Shown here in pieces: positions 10,218-50,544 of a stretch of 64,000 bases of DNA. Made by a program: the position numbers and the translations under genes. This stretch comes from Escherichia coli (GTDB taxonomy: Bacteria; Pseudomonadota; Gammaproteobacteria; Enterobacterales; Enterobacteriaceae): assembly GCF_046105845.1 (NCBI RefSeq), contig NZ_CP151004.1. One strand, 5' to 3'. Below the pieces are notes generated by a model. The model made no database searches and was not told the DNA's origin. It worked only from the letters and a program-made list of their open reading frames with translations. Position 1 is the first letter of the stretch. Every line of letters starts with the position of its first letter.

Positions 10218-11624
10218 ATGTCAAAGCAACAGATCGGCGTCGTCGGTATGGCAGTGATGGGGCGCAACCTTGCGCTCAACATCGAAAGCCGTGGTTATAC
10301 CGTCTCTATTTTCAACCGTTCCCGTGAAAAGACGGAAGAAGTGATTGCCGAAAATCCAGGCAAGAAACTGGTTCCTTACTATACGGTGAAAGAGTTTGTT
10401 GAATCTCTGGAAACGCCTCGTCGCATCCTGTTAATGGTGAAAGCAGGTGCAGGCACGGATGCTGCTATTGATTCCCTCAAGCCATACCTCGATAAAGGTG
10501 ACATCATCATTGATGGCGGTAATACCTTCTTCCAGGACACCATTCGTCGTAACCGTGAGCTTTCTGCCGAAGGCTTTAACTTCATTGGTACCGGTGTCTC
10601 CGGTGGTGAAGAAGGCGCGCTGAAAGGTCCTTCCATTATGCCTGGTGGGCAGAAAGGAGCCTATGAACTGGTTGCACCGATCCTGACCAAAATCGCCGCA
10701 GTGGCTGAAGACGGTGAGCCATGCGTTACCTATATTGGTGCCGATGGCGCAGGTCACTATGTGAAGATGGTTCACAACGGTATTGAATACGGCGATATGC
10801 AGCTGATTGCTGAAGCCTATTCTCTGCTTAAAGGTGGTCTGAACCTCACCAACGAAGAACTGGCGCAGACGTTTACCGAGTGGAATAACGGTGAACTGAG
10901 CAGCTACCTGATCGACATCACCAAAGATATCTTCACCAAAAAAGATGAAGACGGTAACTACCTGGTTGATGTGATTCTGGATGAAGCAGCAAATAAAGGT
11001 ACGGGCAAATGGACCAGCCAGAGTGCGCTGGATCTCGGCGAACCTCTGTCGCTGATTACCGAGTCTGTGTTTGCACGTTATATCTCTTCTCTGAAAGATC
11101 AGCGCGTTGCCGCGTCTAAAGTTCTCTCTGGCCCGCAAGCGCAGCCAGCTGGCGACAAGGCTGAGTTCATCGAAAAAGTTCGTCGTGCTCTGTATCTGGG
11201 CAAAATCGTTTCTTACGCCCAAGGCTTCTCTCAGCTGCGTGCTGCGTCTGAAGAGTACAACTGGGATCTGAACTACGGCGAAATCGCAAAGATTTTCCGT
11301 GCTGGCTGCATCATCCGTGCACAGTTCCTGCAGAAAATCACCGATGCGTATGCCGAAAATCCGCAGATCGCTAACCTGTTGCTGGCTCCTTACTTCAAGC
11401 AAATTGCCGATGACTACCAGCAGGCGCTGCGCGATGTCGTCGCTTACGCAGTACAGAACGGTATCCCGGTTCCGACCTTCGCTGCTGCGGTTGCCTATTA
11501 TGATAGCTACCGTGCCGCTGTTCTGCCTGCGAACCTGATCCAGGCACAGCGTGACTATTTCGGTGCGCATACTTATAAGCGCATTGATAAAGACGGTGTG
11601 TTCCATACCGAATGGCTGGATTAA
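10218..11624 (+). CDS. gnd: 6-phosphogluconate dehydrogenase, decarboxylating
   Basis: 468 aa; near-identical to E. coli Gnd as I recall it. Confidence 0.98.
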
Positions 11625-15609: not shown

Positions 15610-16214
15610 TCACTGATGCCGTTTACGCAGGTTCTCAATTACCGTAGTTAAATCCAGATCCTGATCCTGCAACAGCACCAGCAGGTGATACATCAAATCA
15701 GATGCCTCGTTGGTCAGCTCAAAGCGGTCATGTACCGTTGCTGCCAGCGCAGTTTCCACGCCTTCTTCGCCCACTTTCTGCGCAATGCGCTTGGTGCCGC
15801 TGGCGTACAGTTTGGCGGTATAGGAGGTTTCCGGGTCGGCAGATTTGCGCTCGGCGAGCAGTTGTTCTAGTTGATACAGGAACAGCCACTGGTGAGCGGT
15901 GTTGCCGAAGCAGCTGCTGGTGCCTTTGTGGCAGGTCGGGCCGATGGGATTCGCCAGCACTAATAAAGTGTCGTTGTCGCAGTCCGGCGCAATGCTCACT
16001 ACGTTGAGGAAATTGCCCGACGTTTCGCCTTTGGTCCACAGTCGCTGTTTAGTGCGCGAGAAGAAGGTGACTTTGCCGCTTTCGATGGTTTTATCTAAGG
16101 CTTCCGGGTTCATATAGCCCAGCATTAACACTTCACCGGATACCGCGTGTTGCACAATCACCGGCATCAGTCCGTCGGTTTTTTCCCAGTCCAGTTCGCG
16201 ACGTTGTTGTTCTG

Positions 16215-16221
<7 letters not shown>
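15610..16221 (-). CDS. hisI: bifunctional phosphoribosyl-AMP cyclohydrolase / phosphoribosyl-ATP pyrophosphatase
   Basis: 203 aa; matches E. coli HisIE. Confidence 0.98.
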
Positions 16222-21738
<5,517 letters not shown>

Positions 21739-21743
21739 GGCGA

Positions 21744-22643
21744 TCACTCCATCATCTTCTCAATCGGCAGGACCAGGATTGAACTGGCACCCAGCGCTTT
21801 CAGTTTTTCCATCGTTTCCCAGAACAGGGTTTCGCTACTGACCATGTGCATCGCTACGCGTTGTTGGTCACCCGCCAGCGGCAGAATGGTTGGGCGTTCG
21901 GCACCTGGCAGCAGGGCGATGACTTCATCCAGACGTTCGGTCGGTGCGTGCATCATGATGTATTTTGATTCGCGCGCCTGGATCACCCCCTGAATACGGG
22001 TCAGCAGTTTGTCGATCAGTTGCTGTTTGGATTCTTCCATTTCGCCATCGCGCTGGATCAGGCAGGCTTTCGAGCGGTAGATAACTTCGACTTCGCGCAG
22101 GCCGTTAGCTTCCAGCGTGGCACCGGTGGAAACCAGATCGCAAATCGCATCCGCCAGTCCGGCACGCGGGGCAACTTCGACAGAACCGTTCAGTAAACAG
22201 GATTTAAAAGAGATGCCTTTCTGGTCGAGATAACGCTTGAGCAGGTGAGGATAAGAGGTGGCGATACGTTTACCGTTTAAGGAGAGCGGGCCATCCCAGG
22301 CTTCATCAACCGGCGTTGCCAGTGAAAGTCGGCAGCCGCCGAAATCCAGACGACGCAGGGTAAAGTAGCGCGGATCTTCACCCTGGGCTCGGCGGTTAAG
22401 CAGCTCTTCTTCCAGCACGTTTTCGCCGATAATCCCGAGGTCAACCACGCCGTCCATTACCAGACCGGGAATGTCGTCATCACGTACGCGCAGAATATCA
22501 ATCGGCATGTTTTCTGCCATCGCGATCAGGCGCTGGGTGTGAAGATTGATTTTAATGCCACAGCGCGCCAGTAATTCGCGTGAGTCATCACTTAAACGGC
22601 CGGATTTCTGCATAGCTATGCGTAAACGAGTGTTGTCTGTCAT
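21744..22643 (-). CDS. hisG: ATP phosphoribosyltransferase
   Basis: 299 aa from [17 protein letters not shown]; ORF track extends 13 codons upstream. Confidence 0.97.
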
Positions 22644-22691
22644 TTTCTTATTCCTCTTTAAACCTGTCTGAACCGTTATCAACCGCGCAAT

Positions 22692-22729
22692 AAAAAAGCC
22701 CCCGGAAGGTGATCTTCCGGGGGCTTTCT
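22692..22729 (-). terminator. his operon attenuator terminator
   Basis: agcccccggaag...cttccgggggct hairpin followed by U-run on the minus strand, between hisL and hisG. Confidence 0.8.
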
Positions 22730-22788
22730 CATGCGTTCATGCACCACTGGAAGATCTGAATGTCTTCCAGCACACATCGCCTGAAAGA

Positions 22789-22839
22789 CTAGTCAGGATG
22801 ATGGTGATGATGGTGGTGTTTAAATTGAACGCGTGTCAT
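22789..22839 (-). CDS. hisL: his operon leader peptide
   Basis: Minus-strand translation MTRVQFKHHHHHHHPD* with seven consecutive His codons. Confidence 0.92.
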   Translation of the reverse strand: MTRVQFKHHHHHHHPD

Positions 22840-23062
22840 AAAAGTCTCTGTGAATGTTTATTCAACTGATGTCTTTTAACCTAAACCACTTTCACGTTAG
22901 AAAGCAAGGGCTTTTTTATATATTTTATGGCGATGGATTTGTTTAATGAATGAGCGGGGCAAGGTGGGTGCCTGGAGTGACTACGTTAGAAAAGAAATCG
23001 TGAAAATATGTCTTTAAAACCCTCAAGAACATTGTGTTCTGTAACTAAAGTGGGCTTTGTTC

Positions 23063-23099
23063 CTGCCGGATGCGGAGTGAATGCCTTATCTGGTCTACA
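23063..23099. repeat. REP-like palindromic element
   Basis: gcctgccggatgcggagtgaatgccttatctggtctaca resembles the REP consensus. Confidence 0.5.
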
Positions 23100-23131
23100 A
23101 ATGTTGCGTAAATTCAATATATTGATGTTTT

Positions 23132-23163
23132 TGTAGGACTGATAAGCGGAGCGCATCAGGCAA
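23132..23163. repeat. REP-like palindromic element (inverted relative to the first)
   Basis: tgtaggactgataagcggagcgcatcaggca; pairs with the preceding REP as a BIME-like unit. Confidence 0.5.
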
Positions 23164-23265
23164 TGGTATATTTGCTAACCGTTTCGATTTCATTCATAGA
23201 ATGAATTGTCAGTTTTGATACGCTAGCGTAGCCTTATAGATCTAAGGTGTATCAGGAGATAACGG

Positions 23266-24090
23266 ATGAAAAAGGTCGCAATTGTCGGGTTAGGGTGGTT
23301 AGGCATGCCGCTGGCAATGTCACTTTCAGCGCGAGGCTGGCAAGTCACCGGGAGTAAAACCACACAAGATGGTGTCGAAGCGGCCCGAATGAGTGGCATT
23401 GATAGCTATCTGCTTCGCATGGAGCCTGAGTTAGTTTGCGATTCTGACGATCTGGATGCCCTGATGGATGCCGATGCGCTGGTCATTACGCTTCCGGCAC
23501 GTCGTAGCGGCCCCGGCGATGAGTTCTATTTACAAGCGGTACAAGAGTTAGTGGATAGCGCGCTGGCCCATCGTATTCCCCGAATTATTTTTACCAGCTC
23601 AACATCTGTCTATGGCGACGCGCAAGGCACGGTTAAAGAAACTACCCCGCGTAATCCGGTAACCAACAGTGGACGAGTATTAGAAGAACTCGAAGACTGG
23701 CTGCACAATTTACCCGGTACTTCGGTCGATATTCTGCGTCTTGCGGGCCTGGTCGGACCGGGACGTCATCCCGGACGCTTCTTTGCCGGAAAAACCGCCC
23801 CTGATGGTGAACATGGTGTTAATTTAGTCCATTTAGAAGATGTTATTGGCGCTATCACTCTGTTGTTACAGGCACCTAAAGGCGGACACATCTATAATAT
23901 ATGTGCGCCAGCTCACCCTGCGCGTAATGTTTTCTATCCGCAGATGGCCCGTTTACTGGGGCTGGAACCTCCGCAGTTCAGAAATAGTCTGGACAGCGGC
24001 AAAGGTAAGATTATTGATGGCAGTCGGATTTGTAATGAACTGGGGTTTGAATACCAGTATCCCGATCCGCTGGTAATGCCGCTGGAGTAA
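23266..24090 (+). CDS. yeeZ: NAD(P)-binding epimerase/dehydratase-family protein
   Basis: 274 aa; VAIVGLGWLG Rossmann N-terminus; synteny with E. coli. Confidence 0.88.
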   Translation: MKKVAIVGLGWLGMPLAMSLSARGWQVTGSKTTQDGVEAARMSGIDSYLLRMEPELVCDSDDLDALMDADALVITLPARRSGPGDEFYLQAVQELVDSALAHRIPRIIFTSSTSVYGDAQGTVKETTPRNPVTNSGRVLEELEDWLHNLPGTSVDILRLAGLVGPGRHPGRFFAGKTAPDGEHGVNLVHLEDVIGAITLLLQAPKGGHIYNICAPAHPARNVFYPQMARLLGLEPPQFRNSLDSGKGKIIDGSRICNELGFEYQYPDPLVMPLE

Positions 24091-25065: not shown

Positions 25066-25331
25066 AGAAAAATTATTATGACAAGCCTCTCATTCTCTTG
25101 TCATTTCCCCCCCATTTAGGCACAATGCGCCGCTGTCAAAAAATGACTAAAAACCGACGTTTAATTAGCGTCGGTTATTTTTTGCTTCAAACCAATCATT
25201 CATACCAAGAGGCCGGGCTTCGTACCGGATAGATATTTACTAAAAATCGACAGTTGTTGTCGCTGAGGAATCCAAAAAAATGGGGCAATTTTTTGCTTAC
25301 GCGACGGTTATCACCGTAAAGGAGAATGACC

Positions 25332-33911: not shown

Positions 33912-34262
33912 TCAGGTTCGCGTAATGGGGCAGGCGGTAAAGCGCATCATTTCACCCAGCGTACGGGTAACCTGGCTAAGTGCATATTCGATCGCAGAAA
34001 CATCACCAGTCAGCACTACGGCACCGGTAAAACGATCAAGAAAACCGATCTCTACAGAGCCTGATTTTGTGGCGATATCACATGCGATGATAGATGCTTC
34101 GCTGGGGGTAATTGTAAGAATACCAATAGCGGAAATGGTGTCTGGTAAACCCAATTTCTTAAACAGATCCTTCCCTGGATTGGCGATGACATGTGCCAGC
34201 GTGACCTGCTTACCAGGGACATATTCCTGAATCATCCGTTCAGTTGTGTGCTGAGTTGTCAT
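33912..34262 (-). CDS. pduU: BMC shell protein PduU
   Basis: 116 aa from [20 protein letters not shown]; start overlaps the pduT stop by 1 nt; ORF track is longer by 8 codons. Confidence 0.9.
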
Positions 34263-34816
34263 TATCCCTCCACCATCTGACGCCACATGGCTCCATGTGG
34301 ACGGGCAATCACTGACCGATAGACCAACAAACCTTTTTCCCCCGCACGCTCGCTGGCGACAGAGACCGCGTTATTAACATCTGAAATATCGCCAGCAACC
34401 ACCATGTAGCATTTACCACCAATGCCAAAAGCCATATGTACGCGAACGAGAATGACATTCGCAGCTTTGACAGCACAATCGGCAGCGTCAATGCAGGCGG
34501 CGACACCCCAGGTTTCGACTACGCCGACAGCCCGGTGCTGTTCAACATGGTTAAGTCCGCTGATTGCAGAAAGGAGGCTGGGATGAATATTCGGCAGGAC
34601 AAGACTGTCGACCAGCATTTCACCAGCAAGGGACGCTCCGCTGTTGATGGCCTGTTGCACCGCGCCCACATCGCCACCGAGCATCAGCAGAAATTTTCCG
34701 GGGCATAGCGTTTTGCTGACCAGTAACTCAACGTTGGCGCTTTTCAGCATGGCGTCGCCGGTTTCCATCCCTTTCGCGATACTGCTAAGTTCTAAAATAC
34801 CTACCGCTTTCGACAT
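34262..34816 (-). CDS. pduT: tandem-BMC-domain shell protein PduT
   Basis: 184 aa with two BMC domains. Confidence 0.92.
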
Positions 34817-34818
34817 CG

Positions 34819-36162
34819 TTAACCTCTCACAAGCGTAATCGCGTTTTCTGTCACATCGCTGACCATGCCATCAATACTGGCATGAATGGGGGCACCTAAT
34901 GTGCCGTGTGGAATTTGACCTACATATTGCCCATGAACGACGCGATCGCCTTTTTGTACACACGCAATTGCGCTGGCACCGATGTGCTGGCGTAACAATA
35001 ACGTCACTTTTTCGGGTTGAGGCACCTGTTCAGACAATGGCGCATCCTGATACCACGGGATTAGGCCCAGTCTGGTTACCAGCCGTTTTACGGGAATCAG
35101 TCGATAATTTGCCATGGGATCAGCAGGATTTAAGGCACCTTCGTAGCGGAGATTTTGTGCGCGTAATTCCTGCTTAAGCAGACGGTTTATGCGCATTGGT
35201 GAAATTCCTACCGGACAGGCGACGCTGGCGCAGACGTTGCACTCCGAACAGGTGAGCGCCGTCAGTAACAGTTGTGGCGTAGCGAGCTGTTGGTAGTTAA
35301 CCGCACGTACTAATAAATGGGGGGCCAGTTCGTGACCGACTAAATGACGTGGGCAGAGATCGGTACACAAGCGGCATTGCTCACAAACAGTTTTCGCGAC
35401 GGCAAGTACGCTGCGGTCATTCTGCATTCGACGTTGGATCAGTGAATGAGAGTTGGGTAAAACCAGCAAGCCGCCAGTGGTTTTGCTGACTGGTGTGTCG
35501 AGCGATGTGATCAAACTTCCCATCATCGGCCCGCCATTGATAAAACCAGGAGCATCCACTGTTGCGCCGCCCGCCAGCGCCAGGACTTCACGTAAAGACA
35601 TGCCGATGGGGACGGTTACCGTTATTGGTTTCGCCACTGCACCATTAACGGTGAGTGTGCGGCGCGTCACTGGATACTGTTGCTCGACGGCTCTGGCAAT
35701 ATTAAGTACGGTTTGAACATTATTGACCACCACACCGACGCTAACGGGTAATGCAGCGGGTGGAACGCGGCGACCAGTTGCCATCCAGATGGTCAGCACT
35801 TCGTCTCCTGCGGGGTAAACATCGGGAAAAATATGCAGGCGGATATCCGGTGGTAATAGGGGTGTGAGTGCGTTTATTGCCAGTTGATATTTCTCTTTCA
35901 GCGCGATGATTCCGCTACTGGCCCCGGTGGCTTTCATCGCATAGTGAACACCGCGAAGCAGGCGGCTGGCTTGCTGCGCCATTAACTGTTGATCCACTTT
36001 CAACATGGGTTCGCATTCCGCCGCATTCACCAGGAACGTGTCAACACGCGCTTGTAGCTTAATATGGGTTGGGAAACCTGCGCCGCCAGCACCCACGACA
36101 CCTGCTGCCTGTACTCGCTCGCGGATGGTCTGGTCGTCGCAGGAGGTTAACTCGACGTTCAT
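34819..36162 (-). CDS. pduS: cobalamin reductase PduS (RnfC/NuoF-like flavo-iron-sulfur protein)
   Basis: 447 aa; two CxxCxxCxxxCP ferredoxin-type motifs ([25 protein letters not shown]). Confidence 0.92.
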
Positions 36163-37271
36163 AACAACTCCTCGAGCAGTTCTGCAATAGCGGTGGCATC
36201 AGCCGCACGCGGGTTGGTACGCAACGTTGCATCCGCCAGTGCCGCCTGAACCATATCTGGTATGCGTATTGACCATTCTGCTTTTTTTTCTTTCAGCACA
36301 TTGGTAAGAGTCGGTAGCTTACAGGTTGTTTTAAGCTGTTCAATATGTTGAATAAGTGCATTCAGGCTGGCGGTGTCATTGGCGTTGTCCGGGCATAAAT
36401 GGCACGTTTTCGCCAGCCGGGCGTAGCGTTTGGCAGCGCGCGGATCGCCAGCATTAAAGCGGATAACTGCCGTGAGCAGGAGCGCATTCGCCAGGCCGTG
36501 TGGCAGATGAAACTGTCCGCCGAGTTGATGAGCAATTGCATGGTTTAAACCGAGTCCGGCCTGGCTAAAGGCCATTCCTGCAAGCGTCGATGCATTATGC
36601 ATTTTGCCACGGGTGGCAAGACAATTGCCTTTTTTCACTGCAGTGGGCAGGTATTGAAAAACAATTTGCACGGCTTTTTCGACCAGTGCATCCGTGAAGT
36701 CGCTGGCGCGAGGAGAAACATAAGCTTCAAGCGCATGGGTTAAAACATCCATCCCGGTATTGGCCGTTATCGCCGGTGGCACGCTGACGATCAGAGATGG
36801 ATCAAGGATCGCGATATCCGGATAAAGTGCATTATCGAAAAGGGGATATTTAATCCCTTTCTCAGGATCGCTGATGACACAAGCACTGGTCACTTCGGAA
36901 CCGGTACCGCTGGTGGTAGGAATGGCTACGCAGGTTTCAATTTCAATGCCACACTGGCGACCGAACCAGACAATCGCTTTTGCGGCGTCCAGGGCAGAAC
37001 CGCCGCCAAAACCGATAACCACATCCGGGCGTAAAGTCTGCATTTGCGCAATGCCTTTCACCACGGTCTGGATAGTTGGGTCGGGCGTTATTTCGCTAAA
37101 AATACTAAGACGATTACTGTCGGGCAGCGCCTGATGCAACGTGTCAATAAGTGGTGAGCGTGCCAGAAAGGCATCGCAAATAATCCAGATGTGTCTATGA
37201 GAGAAACGGCTAAGTACCTTGAGACTTCCTGGTCCGCTGTATAAACGCGTCTGCAGTGAAAAAGTATTCAT
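36159..37271 (-). CDS. pduQ: 1-propanol dehydrogenase (iron-containing alcohol dehydrogenase)
   Basis: 370 aa; Fe-ADH family (GGGSALDAAK motif). Confidence 0.92.
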   Translation of the reverse strand: MNTFSLQTRLYSGPGSLKVLSRFSHRHIWIICDAFLARSPLIDTLHQALPDSNRLSIFSEITPDPTIQTVVKGIAQMQTLRPDVVIGFGGGSALDAAKAIVWFGRQCGIEIETCVAIPTTSGTGSEVTSACVISDPEKGIKYPLFDNALYPDIAILDPSLIVSVPPAITANTGMDVLTHALEAYVSPRASDFTDALVEKAVQIVFQYLPTAVKKGNCLATRGKMHNASTLAGMAFSQAGLGLNHAIAHQLGGQFHLPHGLANALLLTAVIRFNAGDPRAAKRYARLAKTCHLCPDNANDTASLNALIQHIEQLKTTCKLPTLTNVLKEKKAEWSIRIPDMVQAALADATLRTNPRAADATAIAELLEELL

Positions 37272-37281
37272 TTCCGTTTCT

Positions 37282-38667
37282 CTAGCGAATTGAAAAGCCG
37301 CTGGTTAACACGCAGCGTCGTGAGCGGGCAAAAGTCCGTGCTGACGTTGTCCCTTCTCCGGTCGGTGTTGCAATGGTAAAGGTCGTAAAGCCTTCGCCGC
37401 CGACGCCAATACCCGCCCAGGAGGGGCCGTTTTTGACAAAGATTGAGGTTTGCATAACGCGTGCGGCAAGGTTGAGCCGTGAGACGTTCTGCGAGTGCAT
37501 AATTGCCGTGTGGTGCAAGCCGTCTTCCACTTTCAGCGCCAGGGTGAGAGCGCTATCAAAATCGTTGACCTTCACAATGGGCAGCATTGGCATCAGTTGT
37601 TCACAAGTAACCCAACTATCATTGGCGTCGACAACAGCAATCAGTAGGCGCGGCGCTTTTGCGGGCAAAGGGAGGCCTGCCGCTTCCAGCAAGGCTGATG
37701 GGCTTTTCCCAACCAGTTTTTTGTTGGCGCTACCGTCTGGCAGGCAAATTGCACGCAATTTCTCCGTTTGCTCATAGTTAAGAAGAAGCGCGCCAAAACT
37801 TTGCATCTGCTGAATTAAATACTCTGCCACTGATGCTACGACAATCAGGCTTTTTTCAGCGATACACGGCAGGTTGTAATCAAATGAAGCGCCGTTGATG
37901 ATATCTTCGGCGGCTTTCACAATATCCGCCGTTTCATCGACGATACACGGAGGGTTACCCGCTCCGGCACCAATCACTTTCTTGCCACTTTTCATTCCCA
38001 TGGCGACGATCCCCGGACCGCCGGTAATCGCCAGAACGCTGATTTTAGGGTGCGCCATCATCTGTTCGGTAGCAGCAAAGGTCGGTTCAGATACGGTAAC
38101 GATCAGGTTATGAATGCCACTACAGCGAAACGCGATGTCTTCGATTATGGTAATCAGTTTTAACGAAACGTTTTTGGCTCCCGGGTGTGGACTGAAGTAG
38201 ACGCTATTACCTGCTGCCAGCATGCTGATGCTGTTGTTAATGATGGTTTCCGTGGGGTTGGTGCTTGGCGTGACCGAGCCAATCACCCCAAACGGAGAGT
38301 ATTCAAACAAAACCATGCCACCATCACCGGTCAGTGCTGTGGTGGTTAAATCTTCAATTCCAGGCGTGTTATCAAGTGCCGCTTTGTTTTTTAGGTACTT
38401 ATCTTCTTTATTTCCCATCCCCGTTTCTTTGGCGCTTTCTTCTGCCAGTTCGGTCAGGCGGGGCATTAATTCTTCGCGAATGGCGCTGATAATGGCGCTA
38501 CGGGTTTTAAGCGGGCACTGTTGAAAGCGTAAAAAGGCCTGGTGTGCTGCGCAGACCGCTTCATCAACAGTCTGGAAAATAGCGTTTCTTTGCGCTCGTT
38601 GCGTAGCGGGGGCAAGCTGCTCACGCAGAATATTGCGGATCAGTGTTTCTAATTCAGAGTTATTCAT
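37282..38667 (-). CDS. pduP: CoA-acylating propionaldehyde dehydrogenase
   Basis: 461 aa aldehyde dehydrogenase with amphipathic N-terminal extension MNNSELETLIRNILREQLA. Confidence 0.93.
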   Translation of the reverse strand: MNNSELETLIRNILREQLAPATQRAQRNAIFQTVDEAVCAAHQAFLRFQQCPLKTRSAIISAIREELMPRLTELAEESAKETGMGNKEDKYLKNKAALDNTPGIEDLTTTALTGDGGMVLFEYSPFGVIGSVTPSTNPTETIINNSISMLAAGNSVYFSPHPGAKNVSLKLITIIEDIAFRCSGIHNLIVTVSEPTFAATEQMMAHPKISVLAITGGPGIVAMGMKSGKKVIGAGAGNPPCIVDETADIVKAAEDIINGASFDYNLPCIAEKSLIVVASVAEYLIQQMQSFGALLLNYEQTEKLRAICLPDGSANKKLVGKSPSALLEAAGLPLPAKAPRLLIAVVDANDSWVTCEQLMPMLPIVKVNDFDSALTLALKVEDGLHHTAIMHSQNVSRLNLAARVMQTSIFVKNGPSWAGIGVGGEGFTTFTIATPTGEGTTSARTFARSRRCVLTSGFSIR

Positions 38668-39671
38668 TGGTTTACTCCCACGTTAATTGCCGCCATTGCG
38701 CTTTGGGCAATATCCATGTCTTGTTCAACGCTACCACCGCTGATGCCAAGCCCCCCGAGCAATATTCCGTCACGCCAGAGGGGGAAGCCGCCACCAAAGG
38801 TGACGACTTTGCCTTGCATATGGCTTTCGAGCCCATAAAGCGGCGCGCCGGGTTGCACGGTATCAGCAAGCTTGTGGGTTGCTGTTTTCATCGCCACGGC
38901 GGTCCAGGCTTTTTTCGGTGCCAGTTCACTGCTGACCAACAGGGCATCAGGCATCCGCCAGGTAACACTTTCTGTTCCGTTGGCATCAACAATGCTGATG
39001 ACAACGGGAATATGCAGTTCATCCGCGCGCATTGCCGCACTACGAATGAGCTGGTGAAGATCCTGAAATGTGAGCGGCATTGTGCGTTCCTTCAATGCTG
39101 GTGTGTGGTTGGCTTCGTGATAACGTTTTGTGATTTCCTGAATCATCAGGTTTTGATGAGCAACGTTGTCTTCCACTCGGGCGAGGGCATACAGGCAATC
39201 GGAAAGTCGGTTGATATAGTGCAGCAAAACATTCCGGACGTTGGTTTCCGTTGTCAGTTCAACCAGACGTCTTTCAGCCCGTCGAGCCACTGTGCGGGCG
39301 AAATGCATGTGGCTTGCGGCTTCAGATCGACCAGGCAGAATGAAGCTGTGAACTGGGGGGACGGCGTTCATTGCGCTATCGATCGCGTTTTCCAGCGCAG
39401 CAATTTCTTCCGTACTGATGTAACGCTGCTTCGCTGACGGCTGTTCGCTTTCACTCGCGAGTTCGGCGCTAAACCAAAATATCTGTTGTTGAATGGCTTC
39501 CAGTAAGATGCGATGGCTTTCGATGGCGGTGGCGCAATAACACAGACTGAGTGTCGCGTTCAGTTCATCCAGCGTGCCATAGGTTTCGACACGTAGATGA
39601 GTTTTGCTGACGCGCTGTCCGGTAAATAAAGACGTACTTCCTGAATCACCTGTTCGGGTATAAATTGCCAT
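38664..39671 (-). CDS. pduO: ATP:cob(I)alamin adenosyltransferase PduO
   Basis: 335 aa; N-terminal MAIYTRTGDSGSTSL PduO-type ATR domain plus C-terminal domain. Confidence 0.93.
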   Translation of the reverse strand: MAIYTRTGDSGSTSLFTGQRVSKTHLRVETYGTLDELNATLSLCYCATAIESHRILLEAIQQQIFWFSAELASESEQPSAKQRYISTEEIAALENAIDSAMNAVPPVHSFILPGRSEAASHMHFARTVARRAERRLVELTTETNVRNVLLHYINRLSDCLYALARVEDNVAHQNLMIQEITKRYHEANHTPALKERTMPLTFQDLHQLIRSAAMRADELHIPVVISIVDANGTESVTWRMPDALLVSSELAPKKAWTAVAMKTATHKLADTVQPGAPLYGLESHMQGKVVTFGGGFPLWRDGILLGGLGISGGSVEQDMDIAQSAMAAINVGVNQ

Positions 39672-39682
39672 CTTTCAGCTCC

Positions 39683-39958
39683 TTAGCGCGAAAGCGTATC
39701 GACAATGCCGACCACTGCCAGGTCGATGGCTTCGTTAGGGCCGGAAAACACATGTCTGGCGCTGGAACCACTGCTGAGGAGTACCAACTCACCAACGCCT
39801 GCGCCGACGGAATCAACGGCAACTTCGTCGCCAGTTAATGGCGTGAGAGGCAGTTCGCCGTCAGCACTGACCCGGCGAACCAGCAGCAGTTTTTTCCCGA
39901 TCAGAGAAGGTGATTTTTGCGTGGATACTACCGCGCCAGTGACTCGAGCCAGATGCAT
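39683..39958 (-). CDS. pduN: BMC vertex (pentamer) protein PduN
   Basis: 91 aa EutN/CcmL-family. Confidence 0.9.
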
Positions 39959-39961
39959 AGG

Positions 39962-40453
39962 TTACTCCTGCCTGATTAACTGAATATTTCGGGTAATTGC
40001 CGCTTCACGAGCCAGTGCGGTCACACAACATTTCCGCTGTAACACCAATATTCCCGAGCTTAACTGTGCGATATCGACATAACTTAAAAGTCGATCATGA
40101 TGTAGGTAGATCGGTTGCCCTTGTTCGTCGCACCAGCTTAGCGGTAGACGGGCGAGAGTCTTCAATTCAATGGCGTTCAGGAAATGACGCTGCAACGCCA
40201 ATTGAATGTGCATTCCCCAGGCTAACGCTTCGTGTATCTGGATTGCTGCTCGATCTGACGTTTCGTTCTCCGCAAGTTGTCGCAGCAGCGGCAGATCGAC
40301 ATATCGGATTTGTAATGACGCATACTGATGAACGCTCTCTTGAACGCTGGCGTCTCGCAGTTGAAAAACAGTCAGCACGAGTGTTTTTCCCGCACGTTGT
40401 TTAAGGCGAAAAACCACTTCGTCAACAATACGTTGCATCAGTATGTTATTCAT
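39962..40453 (-). CDS. pduM: microcompartment structural protein PduM
   Basis: 163 aa; position between pduL and pduN; overlaps pduL stop. Confidence 0.85.
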   Translation of the reverse strand: MNNILMQRIVDEVVFRLKQRAGKTLVLTVFQLRDASVQESVHQYASLQIRYVDLPLLRQLAENETSDRAAIQIHEALAWGMHIQLALQRHFLNAIELKTLARLPLSWCDEQGQPIYLHHDRLLSYVDIAQLSSGILVLQRKCCVTALAREAAITRNIQLIRQE

Positions 40454-41082
40454 GGCATTGACACCAGTGTGGCAAAAACGTCAGGGCTATCAGCCCCTGC
40501 GGCGTTGGCCTCATCGGTATCAATATGCATTTCAAGACGCATATCCGGAGAGACGCGAACAGCGACGTTTTCGAATATCAGTCGTCGCTCATCACCTTCA
40601 ATGGCAACCGCCACTTTTTCGCCATGCGTAACGCCATAAATCAGGGCATCCAGCGGAGACATATGAATATGCCGTTGCGCGACAATGACGCCAGATGTGA
40701 TCTCCAGTTCCGCAAATGGACTTATCAAACGAATCCCCGGAGTGCCGCTGAGATCGCCTGACATGCGTAGCGGGGCGGTGATCCCTAACGTTCTGGCGTC
40801 CGTCCGGGAAATTTCCACCTGACTTGCATTGCGTAGCGGCCCCAACAAGCGAACGTTGTGCAATTTACCTTTTGGTCCCTCCAGCGTAACAACCTGTTCA
40901 GCAGCGAATTGGCCAGGTTGCATTAACGGCTTTTTCTCGCTAATCGGTTGTTCAGGAAAAAGACGCAAATAATCCGCTGTTGAAAGATGAATATGACGAC
41001 TGGAAACACCCAGAGGGATAGGGCGCTCACGCATCTCATCCAGAATCTGGCTCACTGTTTCCTGCAAGGTTTGTTTATCCAC
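40450..41082 (-). CDS. pduL: phosphate propanoyltransferase PduL
   Basis: 210 aa; PduL/EutD-type phosphotransacylase with N-terminal amphipathic peptide. Confidence 0.92.
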   Translation of the reverse strand: MDKQTLQETVSQILDEMRERPIPLGVSSRHIHLSTADYLRLFPEQPISEKKPLMQPGQFAAEQVVTLEGPKGKLHNVRLLGPLRNASQVEISRTDARTLGITAPLRMSGDLSGTPGIRLISPFAELEITSGVIVAQRHIHMSPLDALIYGVTHGEKVAVAIEGDERRLIFENVAVRVSPDMRLEMHIDTDEANAAGADSPDVFATLVSMP

Positions 41083-41084
41083 TG

Positions 41085-41507
41085 CTACTCCCCTCGCTTA
41101 TTGGTGTGCAGGCAAAGTGAGCGGGGCTCACCTTTTTGCCGCTGACATGCCGGGTCAAGACACAAATTACAACTGATAATCTCTGAGGTGACGGTTGTTG
41201 CTGGTGTTTCGCTTGTTTCAACCGTCCCAGTCAATGCTTCAGTTGTGTGGGGCAGAATGCCGTCTCCCGGGCGGGCAATTACTTTGTGTGCGACAAGGCT
41301 ATTTCGCTGTCCGGCGAAACTGGCTCCCGTCGCGATCGCCGCATTAACCGAGGCGACGTCACCGGTGATTTTGATGAGCGTCCAGCCTGAGCCATTGGTC
41401 TTCTCAAGGCCAACCAGCATGATAGACGCGGCTTTTGCCATAGCGTCTGCGCAACTGATGGCGAGAGCCAGACCACTGACTTCAAGTAATCCCAGTGATT
41501 GCTTCAC
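41085..41507 (-). CDS. pduK: BMC shell protein PduK
   Basis: 140 aa; N-terminal BMC domain plus Cys-containing C-terminal tail. Confidence 0.88.
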   Translation of the reverse strand: MKQSLGLLEVSGLALAISCADAMAKAASIMLVGLEKTNGSGWTLIKITGDVASVNAAIATGASFAGQRNSLVAHKVIARPGDGILPHTTEALTGTVETSETPATTVTSEIISCNLCLDPACQRQKGEPRSLCLHTNKRGE

Positions 41508-41530
41508 GCTGTGCTCCTTAGCAAATGGGG

Positions 41531-41806
41531 TTATGCCGATTTAGGTAAAATAGCCTCAACATCACTGTGTGGGCGCGGGATGACATGGCAGGATTTCACT
41601 TCGCCAACTGCGCTTGCCGCAGCGCTCCCCGCATCCACGGCGGCCTTTACTGCACCAACATCACCGCGGACCATCACCGTAATCAGACCCGAACCAATCT
41701 TTTCATAGCCAACCAGTTGCACGTTGGCGGATTTAACCATGGCATCTGCAGCTTCAATTGCGCCAACTAACCCTTTTGTTTCAACCAGTCCTAGTGCGTT
41801 GTTCAT
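41531..41806 (-). CDS. pduJ: BMC shell protein PduJ
   Basis: 91 aa canonical BMC hexamer protein, close paralogue of PduA. Confidence 0.93.
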
Positions 41807-41825
41807 ACTGCTTTTCTCCTGTGGA

Positions 41826-42176
41826 TTATGAGTGGAGTTCCCGGAAGGGAATCCCTTTTACCAGGCGGGCAGCGTTAGAGCCAATGCTGCGCCGGGCATG
41901 GTTATCTTGTTGATACATCAGCGTAAACAGTGGCGCTGATGCCGGTAAGTTTTTGTAATGCACAATCAGTTTTTCCTGATCGCAGGCAATGCCAACCAAC
42001 AGGGGAGATTGACGAGCAGCCAGCCAGGCGCTATCGATAACTTCACCTGACGGAATGTGTTGAATGCGAAAGGGAATACCTTCCTCTTCAATGCCAAGAA
42101 GCACCTCATCCCATATAGTGATGCAGTTACCGATCTCCATGACGACGATGGCTGGTGCTCGCTCTTTACTTTCCAT
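41826..42176 (-). CDS. pduH: diol dehydratase reactivase small subunit
   Basis: 116 aa; follows pduG with an 11-nt overlap. Confidence 0.9.
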
Positions 42177-43998
42177 GAATCGACTCCTTGTGCCAGGCGA
42201 TGAGTAGCCCAGTAGCTACCGCGTTGCGCGGACCTTCGCTACCACGGATATTCCCCCGTCCGGCGACCAATCGATAATGCGCCAATGCATCGGTGACTAA
42301 CTGCGGTACTTCGAAATCCAGCGAAGAACCGCCCACCAGAACGACGAACGGAATATCGCGAATATTTCCTGCAGGGCTTACCTGACGTAGCGCGCGCAGG
42401 GCATTGGTTACGAAGACACGCTCTTTCGCACTGCGACGGACAGCGCGTACTTTTTCCAGCGTCAAATCACCGGGAATAGGCACCAGTTCGTCGGGTTTCA
42501 CTACACAGACGCGGGCAAATACATGGGGGGATAGGGGAGTAGGGAAGAACTGAACGCTGCCATCTTCATGGCGTAAGTGGAACAGGCTTTCTACTTTTGC
42601 CAACGGGTACTTTTTGATTTCTTCTGCCAGATAACGATCATTTAAGCCCAGCTCACGAACGATAATCATCGTTACCATGTCGCCCGCACCCGCAAGGTGA
42701 GTGGCAACAATTTCCCCTTTCTGATTGATGATGGAGGCATCGGTAGAGCCTGCACCTAAGTCCAGAATTGCCAGTGGACGTGTGGTTCCAGGGGTAGTCA
42801 AGGCCCCCTGAATGGCGGCTTCTGCTTCTGCGCCTCCTACCTGAACATCAACATGCAGTTTTTGCTTAATTTCACTGGCGATCATTGCCATTTGCAGACG
42901 GTCGGATTTCACCATAGAGGCAATACCCACAGCCTGTTCCAGTGAAAATTCACCTGCCAGACCGCCGGTTACGCTGACGGGGACAGAGGTATCTATCGCC
43001 AGCAAATCCTGAATAAAAATTTCGTTGCTGGGTTTGTTGGTCAGTTCCGCCATGGTCTGGCGAACATGTTCCAGCATTCCGCCGATGTTGGTGCCTGGTT
43101 CTCCCGTCACGTTTTCCAGTTTTGGGCACTCACCGACCGCTTTCATAATGGCATCGGCACCAGCAGCTACATCAACGCGCGTTGTGCGCCCGGCAGAAAG
43201 CAGTTCGATATTTCCGGCGGGTATCGAACGGGCTTTAACGTCGCCAGAAGGCGTTTTCACTACCACTGCTGAACGGTTGCCGATTAGCGCCCGCGCGACA
43301 GGAACAATATTTTTAGTCTCTTCAGCATTGAGGGCGAAAACGGTGGCAATCCCATACGGGTTAGATAGGGTTTCGATAACTTTCCCGGGAACGGCAACTT
43401 CAATTGCAGCCAGCATGCCGAGCGGAATACGATCGATGTAGAGGACTTCATCAACAATAGGTAGAGGAATTTCCAGGCGGTTATTGACCAGTACGCCATC
43501 GTCGCGTTGCAGAATAACGCCAGTCAGCTGATATCCGGCGCGTACGGAGGCGTTTATCATCGTCGCGATATCGGCAAAATCAAATGCCGATGACACCACC
43601 AGGATGTAAGGTGTGTCCGCCGGGCGTGTTAATAACTCTTGCGGAGTGATGGTGAGCCCTACGCCCAGCCCCACTCCGCCCGGAGTTTTCGGGTTGTGAC
43701 CGATCATGGTTGATTCGGTGATGATGGTTTCAGTGATGGTTTCCATCGCCACATCACCAATGACCGGAGTTGCTTCGTTGATACGAATAAGCGAAATATC
43801 GCTAACATTGATGCCGACTTTTTTCGTTGCCTGTGCGAGCGCCTCCTGAATACCATGGACGTTACGCAACGTACCTTTAATTCCGGTGGTTTCCGCCAGG
43901 GCGCTACTTACGAACGACAACTCTCCAGTTGCACTGAGCGTTGCCAGCGCAATCTCTGTTGATGAGTTACCGATATCAATGCCTGCTATATATCGCAT
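42166..43998 (-). CDS. pduG: diol dehydratase reactivase large subunit
   Basis: 610 aa; actin/Hsp70-like ATPase fold, N-terminal MRYIAGIDIGNSSTE. Confidence 0.95.
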   Translation of the reverse strand: MRYIAGIDIGNSSTEIALATLSATGELSFVSSALAETTGIKGTLRNVHGIQEALAQATKKVGINVSDISLIRINEATPVIGDVAMETITETIITESTMIGHNPKTPGGVGLGVGLTITPQELLTRPADTPYILVVSSAFDFADIATMINASVRAGYQLTGVILQRDDGVLVNNRLEIPLPIVDEVLYIDRIPLGMLAAIEVAVPGKVIETLSNPYGIATVFALNAEETKNIVPVARALIGNRSAVVVKTPSGDVKARSIPAGNIELLSAGRTTRVDVAAGADAIMKAVGECPKLENVTGEPGTNIGGMLEHVRQTMAELTNKPSNEIFIQDLLAIDTSVPVSVTGGLAGEFSLEQAVGIASMVKSDRLQMAMIASEIKQKLHVDVQVGGAEAEAAIQGALTTPGTTRPLAILDLGAGSTDASIINQKGEIVATHLAGAGDMVTMIIVRELGLNDRYLAEEIKKYPLAKVESLFHLRHEDGSVQFFPTPLSPHVFARVCVVKPDELVPIPGDLTLEKVRAVRRSAKERVFVTNALRALRQVSPAGNIRDIPFVVLVGGSSLDFEVPQLVTDALAHYRLVAGRGNIRGSEGPRNAVATGLLIAWHKESIHGK

Positions 43999-44007
43999 AG
44001 TTCGTCC

Positions 44008-44526
44008 TTAATCGTCGCCTTTCAGTTTTTTGCGCTCGACATAAAGCTCCGCAGCTTCACGGACAAATGCAGCACAAATTTTGGCCTGATAACGCCGTTC
44101 AAGATCGTCAGCAATGGCAATGAGTTCTTGCTTAGTCGAACGATAAGGGCGTAACGCATTGTAGATTTCGAGGATACGATCATCCGGTACTGAGGTAAGC
44201 TCAGCGGCGCGTTCAAAATTCATCGCCAGACGATCGCGACCAGCATCTCTGGCAATCGCAGCCTGAATACGCAATGTTTCAGGGGTAATGCGCATATCCT
44301 GGGCGGTGACGTTATCGCTTAGCACATTTTCCAGAGTGAAATCGTCGAGCGTTTTATTGGTTGCTGTTTTAACCCATTCCGGATGTTTATTTGCCAGCGG
44401 ATAATCCGTCACTTTGGCGCTCTGTATTGACGCGCTGGGGACCGCAGAAACAGGAGCTGCATCCTGTAAACTGTTCATGCGATTCAACACGTCCCTGACC
44501 ATCGACTCAATTGCATCGGTATTCAT
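44008..44526 (-). CDS. pduE: B12-dependent diol dehydratase small (gamma) subunit
   Basis: 172 aa. Confidence 0.93.
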   Translation of the reverse strand: MNTDAIESMVRDVLNRMNSLQDAAPVSAVPSASIQSAKVTDYPLANKHPEWVKTATNKTLDDFTLENVLSDNVTAQDMRITPETLRIQAAIARDAGRDRLAMNFERAAELTSVPDDRILEIYNALRPYRSTKQELIAIADDLERRYQAKICAAFVREAAELYVERKKLKGDD

Positions 44527-44540
44527 GAAGATTTCCTTTG

Positions 44541-45209
44541 TTAAAACGTCACGCGCAGTTCTTGCGGTTTTTTGCCAGTGACCACGTACTTCGTCTCTTT
44601 GATATGCAAAATGGCAGATTTAGCCTGGTATTTCGGCCGCGCCATTTGATCGTTGAGGGTCGGCACCGGTTGTGGAGACTCACGCTTTGCATAACGCGCG
44701 GCGTTTTTGCCAATCTGACGATAAGTTTCCAGCGTCAACAAAGGCGCTTGTGGGAATAGTTCCAGGTTAGACAAGGGAGGAAGACCCTGCTGGTGGATAA
44801 CCGTTGTGCCTTTCGACTGAATACCGATAGCAATACCTGAACCACTAAGACGATCGCCTTCGACTGCTACGAATGCGACATCGGACGATTTAAAGCAGCG
44901 AATCACACGGGCTTTAATGCCTTCTTCTTCAATACCAGCAATCACTTCGCGCAAGATGTTTTTATGCGGAATACCGATGATATTGACGGTTTGCGCCAGG
45001 CCGAACGCCGGGCCTACAGCAATAATGACTTCATCTTGCTGAGTGCCTTGTTGGGCTTCGCCAATTTCGGTCAGAAAATTTCCGGTATCTGGCGCGGAAG
45101 AGGCAGTTGCAGAGACAGGTGCGCGAAATGAAACGGGCTTGTCGCTGGTTTGCATTTCTGCCAGCACGTCTTCGATAATCTGACGCAGTAATTTTTCGTT
45201 AATTTCCAT
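44541..45209 (-). CDS. pduD: B12-dependent diol dehydratase medium (beta) subunit
   Basis: 222 aa with N-terminal amphipathic extension [19 protein letters not shown]. Confidence 0.93.
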
Positions 45210-45218
45210 GTCTCACCC

Positions 45219-46883
45219 TTAGTCAATTTCGTTGGGATCAAGTGCACCGGGAATATTTTTGATCTCTTCCCAGCGTTCCCCTTGCAGGCGGTAACCTGTA
45301 GCCGGTCCGGCGTAATCATTGACGTCATTGACCGCAGAGAGCACTTGTCCGTCATCGACGATGATGGCTGAGGTATGGAGATAATCGCCGGTCAGTTTTG
45401 CTTTTTGCATGTTGAGCATGTCCTGGGCGACATCGGTAAAACCGCCTTGCGCCAGGGCTTTCACCACTTCCAGGCTGTTCCGGTTTTTATTGATAATCTC
45501 CTGGGCGAACTTGATGTCTTCCACAATATTGCGCTCAGGCATATCTTTTGAACCGTGGGCATAGGTTGCCGCTTCGACTTCTTCATCGGTAATAGGCGGT
45601 AGTCCCATACCGGCAAAGACAGCCTGTAAAGCGCGAGCGGCTTTATTGCGGATAGCGATAACATCTTCTTCGCGTACTGGTCGCAGGCCGCCATCAACCT
45701 TCAGGTCACGCTGAATGACGTTGTAATCATCGAAGTCTTCAGCATCTTCGTTTGAACCAGCAAACATGTTGTCATAGTTCGGCACAGCGGAAAAACCGGA
45801 AGAGATAAAGTCGGTACCTGGCAGAAACTGCATCAGGAAACGTGCGGTACGGCGCATATCCGAGTGGGTAAAGGTCTGGTCATTACTGGAGGCGCATTCC
45901 AGATCCAGCGATGAGCAAATTAAGTTTTCCGCTAATACTGCGCGGATGCCTGATGGCACAGCTGATGGAACACCGATGCAGCTTACCGAACCATTCTGCA
46001 GGCCCTGAACGCCTGCGGCTTTGGTGATGTAAATGCAACGAGCCTCGAGATAAAGCATTGATTTGCCTTCCGCGTAACCCATCTGTACTTCAGAGCCGGA
46101 GCCGGAAGTAAAGCGCATTTTTAAGCCGCGAGACGCATAGGATGACGCGAGAAATCCTTTTGACCACGGGGTGTCATCGCCATCGGTGAAAACAGGTTCT
46201 GTACCATAGACAGAAATTGTTTCGGCGTAACAGGTGTGGCCTAACATACCGAGTTTCAGTTCGGTGGCTTCTTCCAGTGAACACTGGGTCAAGACGCCCG
46301 GACGTCCCACCTGTGAGCCGACCAGCAGGGCGATGGCGTTGAACGGGGCATAGCGAGCAACGGCAACGGTGGTTTCCTGTTCATCAAACCCGCGCCATGC
46401 GCCTTCAGCTGCGTCGGCGGCAATTTGTACCGGGTTATCTTTGACGTTGGTGACGTGAGCCTGTTGTGATGGTGTTCGACGGGCGCGCATTTTCTGCATC
46501 GCCATCATCATCTCTACCACGTTCATCAGCGAAACAACTTCGACGATTTTTGCAGGCGTCATTGCTGTGGTAAGGGGAACGATATTGCTACGTTTGACAT
46601 TTGGATCGCACAACATATTGGCAAGTTTTACCGAATCCATCGCGATGACTTCTTCTGCGCGCGCGAGATTGATGCCGTAGCGGGCGATAAAGTGGTCGAT
46701 CAGGTCAAACTGGCTGGCGGGTTTTCCATCCAGTTCGGTAACGACGCCGTTAACAATTTTGATTGATGGTTTAGGATCGTTCGGGCTTTCCATCGCAATG
46801 AAGCCTTCTTCAATCCACTCTTTAACGAAACCGTCCTGGTTGACCGGGCGTTTTGCCAGTGCTTCAAATCTTTTCGATCTCAT
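45219..46883 (-). CDS. pduC: B12-dependent diol dehydratase large (alpha) subunit
   Basis: 554 aa; matches PduC throughout. Confidence 0.97.
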   Translation of the reverse strand: MRSKRFEALAKRPVNQDGFVKEWIEEGFIAMESPNDPKPSIKIVNGVVTELDGKPASQFDLIDHFIARYGINLARAEEVIAMDSVKLANMLCDPNVKRSNIVPLTTAMTPAKIVEVVSLMNVVEMMMAMQKMRARRTPSQQAHVTNVKDNPVQIAADAAEGAWRGFDEQETTVAVARYAPFNAIALLVGSQVGRPGVLTQCSLEEATELKLGMLGHTCYAETISVYGTEPVFTDGDDTPWSKGFLASSYASRGLKMRFTSGSGSEVQMGYAEGKSMLYLEARCIYITKAAGVQGLQNGSVSCIGVPSAVPSGIRAVLAENLICSSLDLECASSNDQTFTHSDMRRTARFLMQFLPGTDFISSGFSAVPNYDNMFAGSNEDAEDFDDYNVIQRDLKVDGGLRPVREEDVIAIRNKAARALQAVFAGMGLPPITDEEVEAATYAHGSKDMPERNIVEDIKFAQEIINKNRNSLEVVKALAQGGFTDVAQDMLNMQKAKLTGDYLHTSAIIVDDGQVLSAVNDVNDYAGPATGYRLQGERWEEIKNIPGALDPNEID

Positions 46884-46901
46884 AAATCTGCCTCAGAGAA
46901 T

Positions 46902-47714
46902 TCAGATGTAGGAAGGGCGATCGTTTTTCGGTGTATCGCCGAGAGTCGAAAGCACGGTTTTACCGATTTCGCGTGCAGAGATGACCGCCTGGCGGACTGC
47001 GCCGGAGTCACCCGAGATAATCAGAATGACTTCATTGCTGTAGCTGGTGCCTTGAGCGGGGGAGCTGTATGCCACAACATCCACATTGGCGGACTTCAGC
47101 GCGGTGTCGGCCATCAGAACACCCACAGCAGCCGGAGCGCCGACAATAACGCCGCAAGCCCGTCCCAATGGTGCACCAAACGCTTTTTCCAGTGCATAGC
47201 TGGCGCGGGCGGTATATTGCAGCTCAAGATGTCCGGCTTCGTTGGCATAGACATCGCCAAAGGTCCGATCGAGTTCTTTCAGGGCGACTTCAATACCGCG
47301 TTTCACGTCGGAAACATCGTTGCCACCTAAGAGGATCAATGAGCCATGTCCGGCACCGCCTTTAGTATCCCGAGGAAGTTCAATGCTAATAACTTCAGTG
47401 TTGGTGGCTTTTACCGCTTCATCAGCGGCCATAATGTGTGGCCCTGCGCCAATACGCGCACCCAGAATGCCAATGGAACGATAGCGTTTTTCAAGTTTCA
47501 TTGCGTCCAACAGGGCGCTATCAACGTTCGCAATGACCAGACCTACAGTGTCGCCAATAGCGGTGCCAACAAATTCTGTTAACGTGCAGCTTTTTTCTGC
47601 CATAGCCGTCTCTCGTATTTGATGAGTGGTTTTCGGGAGAACCTCATGCTCTGGCGTCGCTACGCGAGCGATGACCTGCGCCATGATCTGTTTGACCAGT
47701 TCATTGCTGCTCAT
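46902..47714 (-). CDS. pduB: BMC shell protein PduB (tandem BMC domains; internal start gives PduB')
   Basis: 270 aa; in-frame internal Met at residue 38 (codon 47601..47603). Confidence 0.95.
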
Positions 47715-47995: not shown

Positions 47996-48506
47996 AAAGA
48001 CCTCGCCTGGATTTTTTTGACGATATGACTATAAAAAAAAACGAGGAAAAAGAATGGCTGACTTAATCGGCTAATCAGAAAAATTAATAGAGAACAAATA
48101 TTATAAAATTGCTTTTATGAACTATATGTTGTTAATTTATTAGTTGTTTTGTGGATATTTCAATGTGAATTAATTGCGTTGGCTAGTGAGTTTAATCGCG
48201 AGTAATATTTCGTTGAGTTTGGTTCGAGGAAGGAACTGTGATATTTGTTTCAATTTTATTATGTCATGATGGCAATTTTTTACTGTAAAAGTTTGGTGGA
48301 AATTATTACTTTCAACACTGATTAACGCTGTGTTGCATGATTCGGCAATGACAATAATTTGTTATGTTAGCACGATTTTTACACGAGTCTGTCATGCATG
48401 TTAGCAATATTTTCTGCAGAGCAATTTTTTATAGTTGCGCTCGATATACACAACAATCAGCGCATAGTTGGCTGATAAAGAAAAACTCCGTAAAGAAGGT
48501 GTCACT
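47996..48506. promoter_or_regulatory. divergent pdu / pduF-pocR control region
   Basis: About 510 nt AT-rich non-coding DNA between divergently oriented pduA and pduF; in Salmonella the equivalent region carries the PocR-dependent pdu promoter. Confidence 0.5.
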
Positions 48507-49316: not shown

Positions 49317-49518
49317 CGAAATAATCTGGCAGTTATAAACGTTTATTTTTTTACTGTTTGTGATCTGCTTTCCGAACTTATTAAAAAGTCTCCCGCTTCA
49401 CGGAGGCTTTTGTTATTGTCCTTTGTGCTTCTCGTCAGTAAATCATCAGGGATGATGTGAAGATTAAATGTAAAACAATTGTTTTGCTATAACAATAAAT
49501 TAACTGGGAGGTTTTATC

Positions 49519-50433: not shown

Positions 50434-50544
50434 AGTAAATGCCCCAAAAAAAGAGGACGGTTTAAATAAACTCTGCAATGAATAATTAACGTTATTTACC
50501 TGTTATGGGAAAAGTGAAATCAGCTCATAACATACGCTGACAGG

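Follow-up and report, generated by a model that had tools for sequence, protein, structure and literature searches.

A short reading frame with a run of histidine codons, followed by a hairpin, lies just upstream of hisG in the window (the whole 64-kb stretch of Escherichia coli DNA analysed here), and raises the question of whether the two belong to an intact transcription attenuator. We conclude that the leader at 22839..22692 is hisL, through which ribosome-mediated transcription attenuation acts on the histidine biosynthesis genes of E. coli, and assign this reading a probability of about 0.97; no result speaks against the identification. The element is already known, being a classic one that is annotated in RefSeq, and it is ordinary. 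An intact his attenuator had been proposed in a first-pass annotation, and this description holds: immediately ahead of hisG come a leader ORF carrying seven His codons in a row and an intrinsic terminator. The interval given there, 22692..22839, is base-exact: its two ends are the final U of the U run and the first base of the hisL start codon. The functional unit itself begins upstream of 22839, with the putative promoter and transcription start, and the terminator stem continues through the U run.

The identity of the leader is carried by a covariance model and by the stability of its fold. The Rfam family His_leader (RF00514) matches 22813..22690 on the minus strand over the full model, positions 1-126 of 126, with 131.6 bits (gathering score 49) and E = 1.4e-21. 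For the 191-nt leader the folding energy is -71.1 kcal/mol, compared with -44.1 +/- 4.1 kcal/mol for 200 dinucleotide-preserving shuffles of the same sequence (z = -6.5), none of which (0/200) folds as stably. By both measures the signal is far beyond chance. No T-box or other riboswitch family in Rfam matches the hisL region; RF00514 is the sole family that does, and we therefore rejected a riboswitch or T-box reading of the leader.

The promoter, reading frame and pause elements are as follows.

22902..22907, minus strand: putative -35 hexamer of the his promoter, TTGCTT, 18 nt from the -10 hexamer.
22878..22883, minus strand: putative -10 hexamer, TAGGTT, a 3/6 match to TATAAT, followed by a discriminator and then a predicted start near 22870.
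22789..22839, minus strand: hisL leader-peptide ORF, 16 codons with the stop TAG, translated from the sequence as MTRVQFKHHHHHHHPD.
22798..22818, minus strand: seven consecutive His codons (CAC CAC CAT CAT CAC CAT CAT), the sensor for His-tRNA supply.
22797..22780, minus strand: his pause hairpin, the tip of the A:B hairpin described below, CCUGA/UCAGG, 5 bp with an 8-nt loop that holds the stop codon.
22768..22769, minus strand: predicted RNA polymerase pause, with the RNA 3' end at U22769, G22768 as the next base and G22778 at -10.

The hisL frame opens with ATG at 22839 and reads ACA CGC GTT CAA TTT AAA, seven His codons and CCT GAC TAG, so that the peptide ends in Pro-Asp before the stop codon at 22791..22789. 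Loci identical to this leader carry the hisL annotation in RefSeq. Upstream of the frame, TTGCTT and TAGGTT make up what we take to be the his promoter, partly from general knowledge of hisLp, and transcription would start near 22870, about 30 nt before hisL. From this position to the U run the transcript would measure about 180 nt, in agreement with the 180-nt hisL leader RNA of E. coli (PMC10989985). A consensus scan for promoters and terminators over 22400..23300 called neither the his promoter nor the attenuator. The promoter was missed because TAGGTT matches the consensus at 3 of 6 positions, and the attenuator was missed by the simple terminator scan because its stem extends through the U run.

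All three positions of the pause consensus G-10/Y-1/G+1 are present, as G22778, U22769 and G22768, with the hairpin at -29..-12. The published hisL pause has a hairpin between -30 and -11 and is NusA-sensitive (PMC9291695), a description with which a pause at a 3' end of U22769 would agree.

Downstream of the leader lies an intact histidine operon.

21744..22643, minus strand: hisG, encoding ATP phosphoribosyltransferase, the first regulated gene, identified by TIGR00070 (193 bits) and by the annotation of near-identical loci.
15610..21738, minus strand: the his segment after hisG, recognised from the ORF layout and from proteins that each exceed the curated NCBIfam cut-off of their equivalog model.

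All eight structural genes, hisGDCBHAFI, are intact, full length and above the NCBIfam cut-offs. The true start of hisG is the ATG at 22643, preceded by AAAGAGGAA; the ORF list stretches the frame to an upstream TTG. The attenuator serves as the internal control that had been proposed, and anchors the window as E. coli, with the his genes on the minus strand and in the correct frame.

Between the leader ORF and hisG, six RNA segments (A to F) can pair in the following ways.

22771..22806, minus strand: A:B hairpin, 12 bp in three runs, -11.7 kcal/mol, as in the Rfam consensus structure.
22762..22789, minus strand: B:C helix, found in the read-through state only, GUCUUUCAG (22789..22781) with CUGGAAGAC (22770..22762), 9 bp, -10.3 kcal/mol.
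22745..22772, minus strand: C:D hairpin of the terminating state, up to 10 bp, UGCUGGAAGA/UCUUCCAGUG.
22711..22756, minus strand: D:E antiterminator, GAUCUUCC (22756..22749) with GGAAGAUC (22718..22711), 8 bp.
22690..22732, minus strand: E:F intrinsic terminator (the attenuator), a 19-bp stem with a 5-nt loop, -32.2 kcal/mol in isolation.

The arms of the terminator occupy 22732..22714 (5') and 22708..22690 (3') around the loop AUCAC, and its GC-rich core, AAAGCCCCCGGAAG/CUUCCGGGGGCUUU, accounts for 14 bp. The U run, UUUUUU at 22697..22692, ends 49 nt short of the hisG ATG, with 48 bases in between. The earlier claim of a GC-rich hairpin and U-run before hisG is thus borne out in detail, by a 19-bp stem, six U and a start codon at 22643.

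These helices fall into two sets, as had been anticipated for an attenuator: a terminating set (A:B, C:D and E:F) and a read-through set (B:C with 9 bp and D:E with 8 bp). The sets are mutually exclusive because segments B, C, D and E each serve two helices, B in A:B and B:C, C in B:C and C:D, D in C:D and D:E, and E in D:E and E:F. The overlaps of D:E are exact: 22718..22714 is common to E:F and 22754..22749 is common to C:D. As a result D:E sequesters the top of the terminator 5' arm together with three loop bases, 22713..22711, which pair with 22756..22754. Mutually exclusive hairpins, whose absence would have spoken against the proposed attenuator, are thus present.

In the folds, which set forms depends on how much RNA has been made and on which bases a ribosome would cover. 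Folding 22650..22850 had been suggested as a check for both pairings, and this stood in part: the plain fold gives the terminator state only, and the alternatives appear in nascent, ribosome-masked RNA. For the full-length leader, the plain fold contains A:B, C:D and E:F only, the same as the Rfam consensus structure, and at equilibrium the terminator forms under every ribosome mask tried. In the complete RNA, masks have no effect because of E:F, which by itself contributes -32.2 kcal/mol; a kinetic switch would be expected to behave in this way. We therefore place the choice in RNA stopped before the terminator 3' arm (RNA to 22709), folded with a ribosome mask over the His codons. With no ribosome, the minimum free energy structure of this nascent RNA is A:B (22806..22771) plus C:D (22772..22745), with E unpaired; with a mask to 22798 or 22792, corresponding to a ribosome at the third to fifth His codon, it is B:C plus D:E. 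Pair probabilities separate the two conditions almost completely. Without a ribosome they are 0.97 for A:B, 0.00 for B:C, 0.92 for C:D and 0.00 for D:E; with the mask edge at 22806..22791 they become 0.00-0.01, 0.94-0.96, 0.00-0.01 and 0.96-1.00, respectively.

A ribosome at the stop codon is a different matter. In the shortened RNA, D:E then retains a probability of 0.94-0.99 at equilibrium, which favours D:E over C:D by about 2.4 kcal/mol, and equilibrium folding of this state did not reproduce the branch in which a ribosome at the stop codon leads to termination. Thermodynamics thus splits untranslated from stalled leaders, but not finished from stalled ones, unless ribosome release or the order of folding is invoked. 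A second calculation bears on the stalled state itself. In the interval when D has emerged and E has not, the path through C:D is 0.7 to 6.4 kcal/mol stabler than the path through B:C, and the persistence of B:C must therefore be kinetic. The order of formation does separate the cases. Behind a stalled ribosome, the emerging C can form no helix but B:C; when a ribosome at the stop codon covers B, C can pair only with D, and the same holds once the ribosome has left and B is locked in A:B. Since equilibrium cannot separate a stalled ribosome from one at the stop codon, the terminator decision would be kinetic. A decision step set by the first helix to nucleate would agree with the model in the literature, where a ribosome either comes to a halt within the His codons or continues to the stop codon and is released (PMC4046918, PMC10989985).

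Attenuation at this leader has been studied experimentally in E. coli K-12 (PMC10989985, PMC9291695) and in its Salmonella homologue (PMC4046918). A response of read-through to charged His-tRNA is established for the homologue and for K-12 (PMC4046918, PMC10989985), and a translating ribosome is required for de-attenuation (PMC10989985). By sequence identity with K-12, the His-tRNA response probably carries over to the leader in the window; the promoter, start site and pause are likewise proposed here from the published work on K-12, identical in sequence, and on Salmonella. The mechanism would then run as follows. After transcribing the hairpin at 22797..22780, polymerase would pause with the RNA 3' end at about 22769, and a ribosome would load on hisL and catch up. 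When charged His-tRNA is scarce, the ribosome would stall on the seven His codons and cover segment A; B would then pair with C as C emerges, and D would be left free for E. D:E would hold the top of the terminator 5' arm while polymerase crosses the U run, allowing read-through into hisGDCBHAFI. When His-tRNA is plentiful, the ribosome would reach the TAG and either cover B or leave the RNA, and C would pair with D. With C:D formed, E would stay free, E:F would form and transcription would stop at the U run 49 nt before hisG. In an untranslated leader, A:B and C:D would form, and termination would be expected again.

If both helix sets matter, both should be maintained in related bacteria. 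Taking a single genome from each species, we searched for runs of six His codons that continue into Pro-Asp, a pattern found at 120 loci at least. Among the matches listed, a hisG homologue lies directly downstream on the same strand at 102 of 120 loci, with 68-99.7% HisG identity, and the His-codon runs of these 102 hisG-linked leaders are 6, 7 or 10 codons long. Genera with hisG-linked leaders, again among the matches listed, include Escherichia, Citrobacter, Enterobacter, Pantoea and Erwinia; Serratia, Yersinia, Pectobacterium, Dickeya and Edwardsiella; Proteus, Morganella, Photorhabdus and Xenorhabdus; and Hafnia, Budvicia, Aeromonas and Pasteurella.

An alignment of 101 leaders from Enterobacterales, Aeromonas and Pasteurella retains both states. 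The leaders were chosen through the His6-Pro-Asp pattern, and are hence a biased sample; they are related and highly conserved, so that most pairs are invariant and uninformative, and loop-region columns contain gaps. In this alignment, 95.8% of cells are paired in the terminator state (A:B, C:D, E:F), against 45-58% in slid controls, and 97.1% in the antiterminator state (B:C, D:E), against 40-54%. The individual helices are paired in 95.7% (A:B), 98.6% (B:C), 98.5% (C:D), 95.4% (D:E) and 97.2% (E:F) of cells across the 101 leaders. Covariation is present in competing helices. E:F shows compensatory changes at five pairs, among them CG to UA in 30 sequences and, at another pair, GC to AU in 18. 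D:E shows compensatory changes at its two outermost pairs, which use terminator-loop bases and are therefore not explicable by the terminator fold. At 22766, a change from A to G in 23 species turns a U-A pair of B:C into U-G and an A-U pair of C:D into G-U, so that pairing is kept in both.

The dependence on a ribosome mask is also conserved in the folds. When the species were folded one by one, the B:C plus D:E switch was predicted in 89 of 101. The terminator 5' arm was sequestered ahead of its 3' partner in 15 of 101 with no ribosome, in all 101 with a stalled ribosome and in 80 of 101 with the ribosome at the stop codon, the last count reflecting the equilibrium limit noted above. The need of each segment to match two partners explains why B to E hardly vary across Enterobacterales.

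In E. coli itself the leader hardly varies. The transcribed leader of K-12 MG1655 is base-for-base the same as that of the window (22931 to 22648), and over 22959 to 22640 the two differ at two bases, 22932, upstream of the promoter, and 22647. At 22647 (minus strand), the window has G where K-12 and strain GF4-3 have C; the change falls outside the attenuator, in the spacer that separates the Shine-Dalgarno sequence from the hisG ATG, 4 nt ahead of the latter. The 181-nt leader is present in 5,423 of 5,426 complete E. coli genomes, with at least 99% identity in 4,820 and 100% in many. When 701 bases around the leader are used as query, the matches listed in complete E. coli genomes have 97.7-99.4% identity, and the features annotated under the match are hisL, "His leader region", hisG and yeeZ. 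BLAST places number roughly 39 per genome, which the REP units described below explain. The leaders of K-12 and Salmonella enterica share with that of the window the peptide, the six-segment architecture from A to F, the pause hairpin, the terminator and the position before hisG.

The flank upstream of the promoter differs from K-12. Two inverted REP-like units (23062-23161; GCCTGATGCGCTCCGCTTATCAGTCCTAC ... GTAGACCAGATAAGGCATTCACTCCGCATCCGGCAGG on the minus strand) lie between yeeZ (23266-24090, plus strand) and the his promoter, where K-12 carries the yefM-yoeB toxin-antitoxin pair. An arrangement without yefM-yoeB occurs in 1,193 of 5,426 complete E. coli genomes, BL21 included.

Could the conserved leader serve mainly as a protein-dependent RNA switch instead? 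Such a switch has been proposed for the identical K-12 sequence: a 2023 study suggested that DnaA binds the hisL leader RNA as an added control (PMC10989985), and any sites of this kind in K-12 occur in the window too, the leaders being the same. The wording of that proposal is cautious, however ("possible example", "might bind"), and each proposed DnaA box has two mismatches to the consensus (PMC10989985). The conservation seen among the leaders is explained by the two pairing partners of each segment, and nothing in our analysis requires a protein factor. A protein would moreover be at most an added layer, since the same study reports that de-attenuation needs a translating ribosome (PMC10989985). 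We therefore regard a mainly protein-dependent switch as improbable. That DnaA might also bind this leader RNA, on top of ribosome-mediated attenuation, strikes us as similarly doubtful. If true, it would couple histidine biosynthesis to the status of the replication initiator, and the novelty would belong to the published K-12 system rather than to the locus in the window, the leader being identical.

It is highly improbable that the leader is a decayed or inactive copy, locked in one state and so constitutive or uninducible. We found no change in the leader sequence relative to K-12 that would support this; the transcribed leader has zero differences from MG1655, the two substituted bases, 22932 and 22647, lie outside the switch, and all helices and all eight structural genes are complete. 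The near-uniformity of the leader among the complete genomes described above argues against decay as well. As far as sequence can show, we reject it, the transcribed leader being that of K-12. Least credible of all, and rejected on the full-model match to RF00514 (E = 1.4e-21) and the linkage to hisG, is the coincidence of a chance His-rich short ORF beside an unrelated terminator of an upstream gene: 18 of 120 His6-Pro-Asp matches do lack hisG downstream, among the matches listed, some of them chance runs in unrelated taxa such as Frankia, Corynebacterium and Verrucomicrobia and others leaders cut by contig ends, but the remaining 102 stand directly upstream of hisG on the same strand, and no upstream gene on the minus strand needs a terminator, yeeZ being divergent (plus strand).

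Ribosome-mediated attenuation at hisL has close parallels. The trpL (RF00513), pheL, thrL, leuL and ilv leaders follow the same logic, with a short leader ORF that contains tandem codons for the regulated amino acid. In trpL, four segments (pairing as 1:2, 2:3 and 3:4) and two Trp codons are combined with a repressor. The his leader, by comparison, has six segments, seven His codons and two successive helix exchanges, and the two sequences are unrelated. In trpL-type attenuators, a hairpin pause couples translation to transcription, and the position of the ribosome selects antiterminator or terminator (PMC10989985, PMC9291695). T-box leaders and metabolite riboswitches that act on amino-acid genes through transcription termination produce the same output, a choice between terminator and antiterminator in a 5' leader, but they sense uncharged tRNA or ligand by direct RNA binding and independently of translation, whereas the sensor of the his leader is the translating ribosome.

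The remainder of the 64-kb window contains several other features. A cobalamin riboswitch (RF00174, 109 bits) lies at 50525-50699 on the plus strand, just after pocR (49519-50433, plus strand) and about 790 nt before cobU (51489-52034, plus strand); only cobU, cobS and cobT follow it. In Salmonella, the cobalamin riboswitch precedes a long run of cbi genes, which appears to be absent from the window. The whole arrangement is found in 643 of 5,426 E. coli genomes, and RefSeq gives it as "riboswitch | pocR | hypothetical protein | cobU". A run of ORFs (270, 554, 222 and 610 aa, among others) at 34262-47714 on the minus strand lies near a pduF-sized ORF (48468-49316, plus strand) and pocR. The sizes of these ORFs, together with the pocR and EutP/PduV annotations, suggest a pdu (propanediol-utilisation) operon, which K-12 lacks. 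Two enterobacterial small RNAs score above their Rfam gathering scores: STnc240 (69.3 bits) at 25111-25185 on the plus strand, just after yeeY, and STnc230 (74.8 bits) at 49375-49458 on the minus strand, between the pduF-like ORF and pocR. Finally, a 391-aa ORF at 10431-11606 on the minus strand is entirely covered on the other strand by a 468-aa ORF about the size of gnd (10218-11624, plus strand), and is most likely a spurious frame.

For the strain, the hisL leader serves as a control only: it shows an intact his operon with intact regulation, and nothing new follows from it. Across Enterobacterales, the leader offers a clean illustration of dual constraint, in which the substitutions seen, such as that at 22766, are tolerated by both pairing partners.
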